Assembly (NCBI GenBank): GCA_001784175.1
Contig: MFPR01000001.1
Coordinates: 124,001 to 188,000, forward strand
Length of the DNA stretch: 64,000 nt
Source of the DNA: Candidatus Lindowbacteria bacterium RIFCSPLOWO2_12_FULL_62_27
GTDB lineage: Bacteria > Lindowbacteria > 2-12-FULL-62-27
Direction of reading: 5' to 3'
Shown here: positions 22,552 through 24,769 of the stretch, piece after piece
Layout: each line of letters starts with the position of its first letter
Numbering within the stretch: position 1 is the first letter of the stretch
The notes under the pieces: generated by a model
Database searches by the model: none
What the model saw: the letters and a program-made list of their open reading frames with translations, nothing else
What the model was told of the DNA's origin: nothing
Translations under genes and position numbers: made by a program

Positions 22552-23376
22552 ATAACGCGCTCCTCCTTACACAACCGCAATTTTAAAATCCAAACCGGCG
22601 TCAGGGCCGTCTATGAGTATTCCGCCCTGCCCTCAACAAACGATCGCGCCAAACTTCTCGCAGTTCAGGGCGCGCCGGACCGGTCCCTCGTCATCACCTC
22701 CCGGCAAACCGCAGGTCGGGGCAGGGGCGGCAACCGCTGGTGGTCCGGCCAAGGATCGCTGACCTTCTCAGTCATTTTCAGGGTGCCGCGCACGTCGATC
22801 GCACTGCAGAATCTCGCTCCGATTTCCCTCGTCGCCGGCCTGTCCGTTGTCCGGACCGTCCGGCGGATTCATCCGGCATGCCCGGTCGCCCTCAAGTGGC
22901 CCAACGACATTTATTCGGGGCCGAAAAAGCTCGGCGGCATCCTGACGGAGAGCAGCGTACGCGCCGGCCGGCCCGCCAACCTGATCGTGGGGGTGGGGCT
23001 GAACGTCAACACAAGGTTCGAGCGTGCGCCGGCGGCCATCCGATCCACTGCAACGTCTCTTTGCCAAGGCACGTCGCCAAGCCATCGCATGGACGAAGCC
23101 CGGGTTCTGGCGTCTGTCTTGAAGGAGCTGTGCAAACTGGTCCGCCAATTCCTCAGAAGCGGATTTCAGCCCCTTTGCGACGAATGGACTTCCTTCGACG
23201 CCGTCCCATTCGGAAGCAGAATCAGCGTCGACGACGGCAATATTAATATGGAAGGACGCTACGAAGGCATTCTTCCGACAGGTGCACTAAAATTGCGTGG
23301 AGAATCGGGCCTCCACACGATCCTCTCCGGCACGCTCCGTCCCGTGGGCGTACTTCCCATAACGCATAAAGTGTAA
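22552..23376 (+). CDS. birA: biotin-protein ligase; non-canonical start; 3' end overlaps the dif/attL site
   Basis: frame open from 22546; PSTN, QTAGRGR..NRW, KWPND, KKLGGIL and GVGLNV motifs, the first two upstream of the ORF-track start at 22783. Confidence 0.88.
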   Translation: MTRSSLHNRNFKIQTGVRAVYEYSALPSTNDRAKLLAVQGAPDRSLVITSRQTAGRGRGGNRWWSGQGSLTFSVIFRVPRTSIALQNLAPISLVAGLSVVRTVRRIHPACPVALKWPNDIYSGPKKLGGILTESSVRAGRPANLIVGVGLNVNTRFERAPAAIRSTATSLCQGTSPSHRMDEARVLASVLKELCKLVRQFLRSGFQPLCDEWTSFDAVPFGSRISVDDGNINMEGRYEGILPTGALKLRGESGLHTILSGTLRPVGVLPITHKV

Positions 23377-24769
23377 ACTTGGTAGATGTATCTGATTGTA
23401 TACTGCTTTTTTCGTTACCTCCTCCCACTGTTGGGATAAGATTTTTTGGTCTGTACCGTTTGAAAACATCCATAACATAACGTTCGTCGGCCATGAGGGA
23501 CCAGGTGGAGTAATGGAGGCGGCCGGTCGGCATTTCCATGACGGGGATCCATTTCTGGGATACGGCCCAATCCAGGCGCTCCTCCGCCTCCGAAAGGTGC
23601 GTGGGCCGGCCGACGCGGCACATGTCGACGAGGTACTCCACGATCATGCGTTCACGCCAGGCGGTGGCGCAGCGATAGACGGCGCGTTCGGCAATCATCT
23701 GCCAGCGCCGGCAGGCGCCGAGTTCCCGGCGGTTGCATTCGAGTTCATGGCGGGCCTCCAGGCAGTCGCCGGCGTTGGCCTGGGCCCATTCGAGGAGGCG
23801 GGTCTTTGATTCGGCCTGGATGTCGTCGACCGACTTCGTCGGGATCCGTTCGAGACGCCGGCGCCAGTCGGCGAGGATGTCGGCTTTCGTTCTGGACGGA
23901 TCCTTGTCCCGGCGCGTGTTCATTTCGGCGGCCTTCGCGTTCGTAGTTGTGAGGAGGGCCTTCCGGATCTGCGCCTGGCGCGTCGAAAACTCCTCCTGGG
24001 CCTCGTGGGATACGAGGTCGGACCGCCACTGGCCATGGGGCATATAGGAGCGCTTGAGGTCGAAGCGGTGGAGGCGGGCGCGCAGTTCGTGCATGTAGAT
24101 TTGTGTCGCCAGATAGGGAAAGTCCCGGAAGTAAAATCGGGCGCCGTGGATGCCCGAAAAATGCGGCGCGCCATTTTTCTCCCACTGCGTGATGTTGAAC
24201 ACCAGCACATGGGAGGACAGGTGCGGATCATACTCGCGTGAGAAGCCGTCACGCAGGATCGAGTAGACCATGTTATCAGTCGATAGATCGACTTGAGTCT
24301 GGCCGCCCTTTCCCATCCTAGCACGAGAGTATCGTATCTCTATTTCCCGCATGGTCGCCAGGACCGCGTCATCATGCGCTGCCGTGATGTCGGCACGGGT
24401 CATATTGCGCGGTAGCTCAAAGCCGTCCATGAGCGCCAGCATGGAGATTGATTTGGGCGCGGAAAAGGCCCAGGAAAAGCAAAGTACCTTGTGTTTTTGC
24501 ACGATCTTTTTGCCGGCGGCGTCACAGCCTTTGAGCAGGTTCACCATGTCGTCCCGGCCAATGGGCTGCCCTTCCTCAAAGCCGAGGTAGGGCGCGGTTT
24601 TGCCGTAGACGCGGACTCCTACGGAGTCATCAGCCTGGTCAAAGTAGTAGTTTGTACTCTTGTCGTAGAAATAATCGGCGATGCCGACCGGGTCCTGTTT
24701 CATCGGGACGCCCCTAAACACGTCCCACCCCAACTTCGAATCGCGCGTTAGCTCCTTTCGGATCGACAA
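23243..24769 (-). CDS. MOBF (TrwC/TraA-like) relaxase: N-terminal half of the att-split relaxase-helicase gene
   Basis: DYF...NYY tyrosines, FSAPKSIS, SREYDPHLSSHVLVFN, FSTRQAQI, TRRDK; reads through attL into 35 host-derived codons. Confidence 0.88.
   Translation of the reverse strand: MSIRKELTRDSKLGWDVFRGVPMKQDPVGIADYFYDKSTNYYFDQADDSVGVRVYGKTAPYLGFEEGQPIGRDDMVNLLKGCDAAGKKIVQKHKVLCFSWAFSAPKSISMLALMDGFELPRNMTRADITAAHDDAVLATMREIEIRYSRARMGKGGQTQVDLSTDNMVYSILRDGFSREYDPHLSSHVLVFNITQWEKNGAPHFSGIHGARFYFRDFPYLATQIYMHELRARLHRFDLKRSYMPHGQWRSDLVSHEAQEEFSTRQAQIRKALLTTTNAKAAEMNTRRDKDPSRTKADILADWRRRLERIPTKSVDDIQAESKTRLLEWAQANAGDCLEARHELECNRRELGACRRWQMIAERAVYRCATAWRERMIVEYLVDMCRVGRPTHLSEAEERLDWAVSQKWIPVMEMPTGRLHYSTWSLMADERYVMDVFKRYRPKNLIPTVGGGNEKSSIQSDTSTKFTLYALWEVRPRDGACRRGSCGGPILHAILVHLSEECLRSVLPY
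23352..23379 (+). other. attL: hybrid dif site with degenerate XerD arm
   Basis: ACTTCCCATAA-CGCATA-AAGTGTAAACT; differs from the attR copy only at TTA->AAG. Confidence 0.9.

Follow-up and report, generated by a model that had tools for sequence, protein, structure and literature searches.

A predicted PM2-like prophage at the dif site of a Lindowbacterium, with an attachment site inside a relaxase–helicase reading frame

Introduction

Mobile elements that hijack XerC and XerD, the recombinases of the host, have been met mostly in Vibrio and in a small number of other proteobacteria, and it is customary to regard their attachment sites as non-coding signals. Attachment sites can also lie inside a phage gene, as in archaeal viruses with SSV-type integrases, which are split by their own integration such that the free circle alone encodes the whole protein. 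Tailless prophages residing at the chromosomal dif site have already been described in Vibrio (PMC12715192; PMC11630473). Here, we describe a 64,000-nucleotide stretch of the genome of Candidatus Lindowbacteria bacterium RIFCSPLOWO2_12_FULL_62_27 (contig MFPR01000001.1, positions 124,001 to 188,000; hereafter the window), in which a predicted tailless prophage sits in dif and its phage attachment site (attP), as modelled, falls inside a relaxase–helicase gene that integration would cut in two. We consider to what extent the unusual XerD arm of this attP has been shaped by the reading frame that crosses it and to what extent by recombination itself.

The window shares with the SSV-type viruses an attachment site inside a phage gene; the gene split in SSV is the recombinase itself, whereas here it would be a relaxase–helicase, and the recombinases those of the host. 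In overall design, the locus resembles the PM2-like prophages (double jelly-roll) of the dif type known from Vibrio and Pseudoalteromonas, which are about 10-11 kb in size, carry a PM2-type capsid, need no integrase of their own, and regenerate a canonical dif at one junction with a partly degenerate copy at the other (PMC12715192), a design also shared by three capsid relatives considered below (L092, L100 and L117). The attP sites of the Vibrio dif-type phages are described as full-length, left-armed or right-armed and as lying between two genes (PMC12715192), which in the Vibrio and Pseudoalteromonas prophages are a repressor gene and a XafT-like gene. In the window, by contrast, neither a repressor nor a XafT-like gene was found, and attP lies inside the relaxase–helicase gene.

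Two further systems bear on the comparison. The attP of TLC, a satellite phage of Vibrio cholerae with the activator XafT (PMC9226527; PMC6744903), combines, like that of the window, a good XerC arm and a central region identical to dif with a non-canonical XerD arm. The window attP keeps the fifth innermost base of this arm, a G, which is one of two features reported to allow XafT-driven integration, and loses the other, the first innermost T; Vibrio arms with either feature are described as usable given XafT (PMC9226527). Unlike that of TLC, the window arm differs from dif at only 3 of 11 bases, and the whole genome holds no match to DUF3653 (PF12375) at E <= 1. The filamentous Xanthomonas phage XacF1 likewise integrates at dif through host XerC/D with its attP inside a phage open reading frame (ORF), ORF12, which its authors suggest may be split by integration (PMC4076744). 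XacF1 is filamentous and its split ORF a putative regulator, whereas in the window a tailless capsid virus would split a large replication enzyme between its domains. Among the titles and abstracts listed for Xer-exploiting elements with a coding attP, no split replication gene was found.

Paired dif sites

The window holds exactly two matches to a 28-bp dif-like pattern, both on the plus strand, in a search that left three positions free and allowed zero mismatches elsewhere (mean chance expectation from 100 shuffles, 0.00). The left copy (23352-23379, +) reads ACTTCCCATAACGCATAAAGTGTAAACT and the right copy (34363-34390, +) reads ACTTCCCATAACGCATATTATGTAAACT. They lie in direct orientation with a spacing of 11,011 bp. 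A sequence-only reading of the window had claimed that the two sites differ by a single codon, and direct comparison bears this out: they are identical at 25 of 28 bases, the sole difference being positions 18-20, where the left copy has AAG and the right copy TTA. The right-hand arm of a dif site is the one bound by XerD. Arms were assigned by comparison with the Bacillus subtilis and Escherichia coli dif sequences printed in PMC3025954, and the right copy agrees with the experimentally confirmed B. subtilis dif at 23 of 28 bases, including all 11 of the right-hand arm.

The geometry of Xer recombination places the XerD arm of the phage at the left junction and its XerC arm at the right; the left copy is therefore taken as attP and the right copy as the bacterial site, attB. 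On this assignment, the left junction (attL, 23352..23379, +) consists of the host XerC arm (23352-23362), the central region (23363-23368) and a phage-derived XerD arm (23369-23379), the latter opening with the deviant AAG (23369-23371, +) that reads as the codon CTT on the minus strand. The right junction (attR, 34363..34390, +) is a canonical dif whose XerC arm comes from the phage and whose XerD arm comes from the host, with the central region between them. The earlier claim that the phage copy carries a non-canonical XerD arm thus stands, with CTT as its inner triplet.

Apart from the right copy, no canonical dif was found in the 4.39-Mb genome. The host phylum is represented in the collection by four species genomes, each of which has one Bacillus-like dif candidate (in L006, L007, L008 and at 34363-34390 of the window). 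Their XerC arm is common to all four, save that one genome has a different first base; L006, L007 and L008 have identical XerD arms, one base off from that of the window, and the central regions differ among the four. The host XerC and XerD proteins score 335.9 bits (NCBIfam cut-off 335.15) and 335.5 bits (cut-off 329.6), respectively, and none of the genome's 14 PF00589 (tyrosine) and 1 PF00239 (serine) recombinase matches falls inside the element (C1:147352-158390), in a search limited to these two types. Insertion at the chromosomal dif, flanking dif-like direct repeats of which one is a regenerated dif, absence of a tyrosine or serine recombinase of its own and a host with both XerC and XerD are features of IMEX (integrative mobile elements that exploit Xer), and all are found here.

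The divided relaxase–helicase gene

The attachment site falls within a coding sequence whose two parts now lie at opposite ends of the insert, both on the minus strand. The N-terminal half (23380..24769, -) comprises a MobF/TrwC relaxase domain (Pfam TrwC, 7.1e-41; NCBIfam MobF, 119.7 bits, cut-off 100) and part of a linker; translation probably begins at the ATG of 24705-24703, the start given by the database gene call, and in the prophage its frame runs through attL and 36 codons into host DNA, ending at 23243 (ORF 23243-24769). The C-terminal half (32991..34362, -) comprises the rest of the linker and an SF1 helicase of the RecD/TraA type (AAA_30, 2.2e-38; UvrD_C_2; TraA_Ti and RecD2 matches), and is open from the TAA in attR (34380-34382, -), with which it is in frame, to the stop at 32991-32993 (ORF 32991-34337). 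The two ORFs have the same frame relative to the repeat. Joined in silico as in an excised circle, they form a 2790-nt ORF with zero internal stops, 929 codons long when counted from the first TTG and 907 when counted from the ATG of the database gene call. The stop-to-stop open frame across the modelled attP spans 947 codons, and the sole other open frame 32. These results agree with the sequence-only reading, which had assigned the frame to a relaxase–helicase gene; it is in the modelled excised form alone that one protein has a MobF relaxase followed by an SF1 helicase.

The closest relatives of the relaxase half, sought among 1.84 billion representatives, are fused relaxase–helicases, the 11 aligned ones being 863-1042 aa long. 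Both halves tile collinearly on all 11, the N part with 115-144 identical residues among 391-418 aligned and the C part, at matching identity, with 118-146 among 415-437. Because the relatives are fusions, the halves tile collinearly and the modelled circle is open over 929 codons, the relaxase and helicase halves appear from their sequences to be one gene rather than two. The codons overlapping attP (464-473) fall where the commonest residue is found in at most 6 of the 11 relatives in any column, and are flanked in the alignment by two stretches inserted in the window protein alone. Integration thus appears to sever the gene in an unconserved linker between its domains. The NYY motif of the relaxase is kept. 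As a separate observation, an Asn of a helicase motif, unchanged throughout the relatives, reads Ser in the window protein.

The prophage and its relatives at dif

The insert between the repeats is read as a dif-integrated, tailless, PM2-like prophage of 11,011 bp because it carries predicted capsid, ATPase and transglycosylase genes. The major capsid protein, a double jelly-roll of PM2 type (29673..30491, -), matches P2_N (7.6e-26) and P2_C (1.3e-35) above the Pfam cut-offs as well as phrog_8536, and the closest catalogued relatives of its gene are autolykivirus capsid genes at 41% identity. The packaging ATPase lies at 30888..31502 (-; phrog_2666, 5.6e-17) and the lytic transglycosylase at 27114..27722 (-; Pfam SLT, 3.8e-15). 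A P2-type double jelly-roll capsid and a packaging ATPase in a genome of the ~10-kb class, here 11 kb, are marks of the PM2-like tailless phages (Vinavirales).

Three capsid relatives occupy dif sites of the proteobacterial type, with inserts of 10.3-11.4 kb. L092 (3301-14681) keeps the XerC arm, matching that arm and the centre at 17 of 17 positions, and has 6 mismatches among the 11 bases of the XerD arm; across its modelled attP, open frames reach at most 61 codons. L100 (5149-15500) and L117 (2894-13279) keep the XerD arm, and their degenerate arm is that of XerC. A repressor-like gene stands at one end of L092 and L117, and L092 has a DUF3653-like match at its other end, whereas in L117 such a match lies near both sites. 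Two further relatives, L101 (6344-7291) and L166 (8444-9613), are unintegrated genomes of ~10.7 kb (L166 with a terminal repeat of 127 nt) that bear a right-armed dif-like site in the 3′ part of the open frame of a helix-turn-helix gene, immediately before a DUF3653-like gene. The arrangement in L092 and L117 and in L101 and L166 is that described in PMC12715192.

The consequences of a weak arm have been described for V. cholerae, in which FtsK-driven recombination is confined to XerD arms close to the canonical one, the inner positions counting most; the attP sites with the strongest resemblance to dif are excised more, and a cassette flanked on both sides by dif disappears at a rate of 20% per generation (PMC9226527).

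What shaped the XerD arm

On the minus strand, the left copy reads TTT ACA CTT TAT GCG in the frame of ORF 23243-24769 and the right copy TTT ACA TAA TAT GCG in the frame of ORF 32991-34337. An intact gene demands, by logical necessity, a departure from dif at the TAA codon, because the canonical XerD arm puts this stop in the relaxase–helicase frame. The codon-exact coincidence is weaker than it looks, since any ORF crossing the site in this frame needs at least one of the three bases changed. One substitution is enough to abolish the stop, yet all three bases differ. There are seven one-base sense alternatives to TAA, five of which retain the innermost T of the arm, and 27 of the 61 sense codons differ from TAA at all three positions; three differences are often expected of an unconstrained codon and not of the closest mimicry. 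Moreover, the canonical dif is free of stops in two of the three minus-strand frames, and a frame shift would cost little at attP, which lies in a free linker beside lineage-specific insertions. The departure from dif is confined to the 3 innermost of the 11 bases of the arm, the central region being identical to dif.

Taken together, we hold it to be likely, though by no means strongly so, that the frame forces at least one mismatch and that the loss of the full inner triplet reflects a weak arm that is tolerated or selected. The phage would have been inserted into the host dif by host XerC and XerD, which are the likely agents because the element has no recombinase gene of its own. Integration would cut the MobF-type replication gene in its linker, and excision would rejoin the halves in frame. 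The reading frame would set a minimum of one mismatch at the TAA codon, and tolerance of, or selection for, a weakened XerD arm would then have allowed the whole inner triplet to be lost. Such an arm may shield the prophage from the FtsK-activated, dimer-resolution excision expected between two good dif sites. Coding sets the minimum, in other words, and the weakened arm was probably selected or tolerated for its own sake. The sequences themselves show the paired sites, the divided gene and its frame, an element lacking a tyrosine or serine recombinase, a host with xerC and xerD, and relatives whose site is empty; that integration depends on Xer, that the weak arm is of benefit and that the split might serve regulation are things we infer.

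The sequence-only reading had gone further, holding that coding pressure explains the arm. This survives in part: the change does lie in the codon that TAA forces to differ. It does not account for three substituted bases where one is enough, for the two stop-free frames, or for the arms of the capsid relatives, which are degenerate in non-coding DNA. The same reading had proposed that the weak arm may also bias the direction of recombination as in TLC; the analogy is reasonable, but no DUF3653- or XafT-like gene was found in the element or the genome.

A bolder version, possible though doubtful, is that the phage enters lysogeny by self-amputation, with integration parting the relaxase from the helicase of its sole replication initiator and the same codon serving both coding and recombination control. 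Prophage replication would be blocked until excision rejoins the relaxase–helicase gene, and the three bases would at once keep the joined gene open and spoil the XerD arm against FtsK-driven excision. The codon would thereby serve a phage without a recognisable repressor-XafT lysogeny module.

Alternatively, coding pressure might have acted alone, such that the phage mimics dif as closely as the frame allows and CTT (Leu) is merely whichever sense codon came to be fixed. Outside the codon, each of the 25 positions is that of dif, all three mismatches sit in the would-be stop codon, and the ORF is whole across the modelled attP. However, the closest mimicry predicts one mismatch and not three, given the one-base sense codons on offer, most of which keep the innermost T; the residue lies in an unconserved linker, where no particular amino acid is expected; the two other frames would permit a perfect site; and the arms of relatives degenerate without any ORF. 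We therefore consider this explanation unlikely. We see a similarly low probability that recombination control acted alone, with a weak inner XerD arm selected for stability or directionality, the overlap with the codon a coincidence of phase, and an existing degeneracy of the arm the only reason why the ORF could cross the site. Elements that integrate at dif usually have degenerate arms, the inner positions weigh most in FtsK-driven recombination, and a contiguous triplet hits the codon phase one third of the time. Still, this leaves unexplained why the mismatches end at the codon borders with the outer eight bases perfect, when those of L092 are scattered over the arm. Lastly, decay after integration, in which an originally canonical attP separated a relaxase gene ending at TAA from a helicase gene and the left junction mutated in a trapped prophage, is very improbable: it would fit the presence of only the integrated form in contigs of four runs and the replacement of one conserved relaxase histidine, but decay is not likely to place three substitutions side by side and leave the rest of the 28 bp untouched, both halves are stop-free over 929 codons, and the relatives are fused genes, all 11 aligned being full-length fusions.

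Several observations weigh against the favoured reading of a coding minimum plus a weakened arm. First, the three mismatches fill exactly one codon and the 25 other positions match, including the outer eight of the arm, a pattern that would be expected from pure coding pressure on a perfect mimic if the amino acid mattered; the mismatches of L092, unlike this contiguous triplet, are scattered. Second, in an alignment to TraI (2q7t) the relaxase has LSSH (window 24150-24200, -) in place of the LHTH histidine pair. All 11 relatives, and TraI as well, have a histidine where the window protein has this Ser, and we take that residue to be the second histidine of the metal-binding triad. The relaxase–helicase gene may, on this evidence, not be fully functional, which would leave present-day coding selection unproven. 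Third, the rules for the XerD arm come from V. cholerae and may not hold in a distant host phylum. Fourth, attP is reconstructed from the two junctions and not read directly. In Logan contigs of four runs from four studies, both junctions are bridged in the integrated form, and neither an excised circle nor an empty site of the element was found; the joints listed there have sides of 20-24 letters and lie elsewhere, and contigs drop rare variants, so that excision is not contradicted. Among the samples listed as containing the locus, none is of RNA. Finally, the GC skew on the contig has no sign change at dif, and a position at the replication terminus is not supported. Over the whole length of contig C1, the skew is weakly negative to the left and to the right of dif, and nowhere positive except within the prophage.

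Searches for relatives and an activator

No relative of the relaxase above 38% identity was found among the protein representatives searched. A word-based search for longer proteins gave one weak match, and viral contigs nothing useful. None of 50,697 phage records matches the relaxase half, and the plasmid matches are conjugative TraI genes at ~25% identity. In Elusimicrobiota and other metagenome-assembled genomes (MAGs) that hold relaxase relatives, the gene is mostly whole and in several cases lies inside contigs of tens of kb. A P2_C capsid match was absent from five genomes with relaxase relatives, a result of little weight as the control was also unmatched. One termite-gut Elusimicrobiota MAG has only the helicase half of a related relaxase–helicase (L027, 10001-11416), with no N-terminal half in that genome and no dif-like site visible beside it; this is probably a remnant. 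Conversely, among 78 capsid-related loci besides the window's own contig (74 metagenome loci and 1 viral locus with a capsid match, and 3 more viral loci), none holds a relaxase or helicase homologue (tblastn, 1e-5).

The sequence-only reading had suggested that a XafT-like activator be sought among the small phage ORFs. This came to nothing: nine further ORFs of the element, most of them small, have no Pfam match, and tblastn with the DUF3653-like genes of L101 and L166 returned no match.

Other genes of the element and its host flanks

Among the remaining genes of the prophage, a candidate spike or receptor-binding protein (26138..27172, -) has a concanavalin-like lectin domain (Laminin_G_3, 6.2e-15). 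A VapBC-like pair of small genes (24917..25670, +; RHH_1 at 0.0017, below the cut-off, followed by PIN at 4.5e-08) is the only plus-strand coding of the prophage and adjoins the promoter region of the relaxase; it is possibly an addiction or regulatory module. A search for inverted repeats upstream of the relaxase, as signs of an origin, found just one 9-nt GC palindrome. An 88-aa ORF (28288-28554, -) lies directly upstream of a conserved 182-aa virion-gene candidate (27738-28286, -) and resembles its first 81 residues at 34% identity, which looks like a partial tandem duplication. Between the ATPase and capsid genes, a site at 30668-30695 (-) matches the sigma-70 consensus perfectly at 12 of 12 positions (TTGACA, 16 nt, TATAAT) and is a candidate late promoter. 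The idea that integration parts the late genes from their promoter is unsupported, given that this site precedes the capsid gene.

On the left flank, the 3′ part of a host biotin-protein ligase gene (22783..23376, +; BPL_LplA_LipB, BPL_C) reads into dif, its stop codon falling within the XerD arm of attL. Integration alters the last two residues of the ligase from Ile-Met, as encoded with the canonical site, to Lys-Val at the left junction. On the right flank lies a host gene for an oligopeptide-type ABC ATPase (34409..35419, -), and a gene 72-75% identical to it adjoins the dif-like site in L006 and L008. Two of the three family relatives show the corresponding empty site, a dif-like sequence between the biotin-ligase and ABC ATPase genes without an insert, and this synteny identifies the flanks; in these two, no biotin-ligase match extends to the dif-like site. 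The third has a 3-kb locus around its dif-like site with neither flanking gene.

Implications

Tailless prophages at dif were already known from Vibrio, and an attP inside a phage ORF from XacF1. What is new here is that a tailless phage at dif carries a replication enzyme of the conjugation type, that integration cuts the gene of this enzyme, and that the host belongs to a phylum of which very little has been sampled. The locus widens the range of dif-integrating tailless phages to such a phylum, whose dif is Bacillus-like, and adds a conjugation-type relaxase–helicase to the replication modules seen in PM2-like viruses. With attP inside the gene of a large enzyme, one sequence must satisfy both a reading frame and two recombinases, and the site thus offers a natural test for telling apart the positions of a XerD arm that are required, those that are tolerated and those that are spoiled on purpose.

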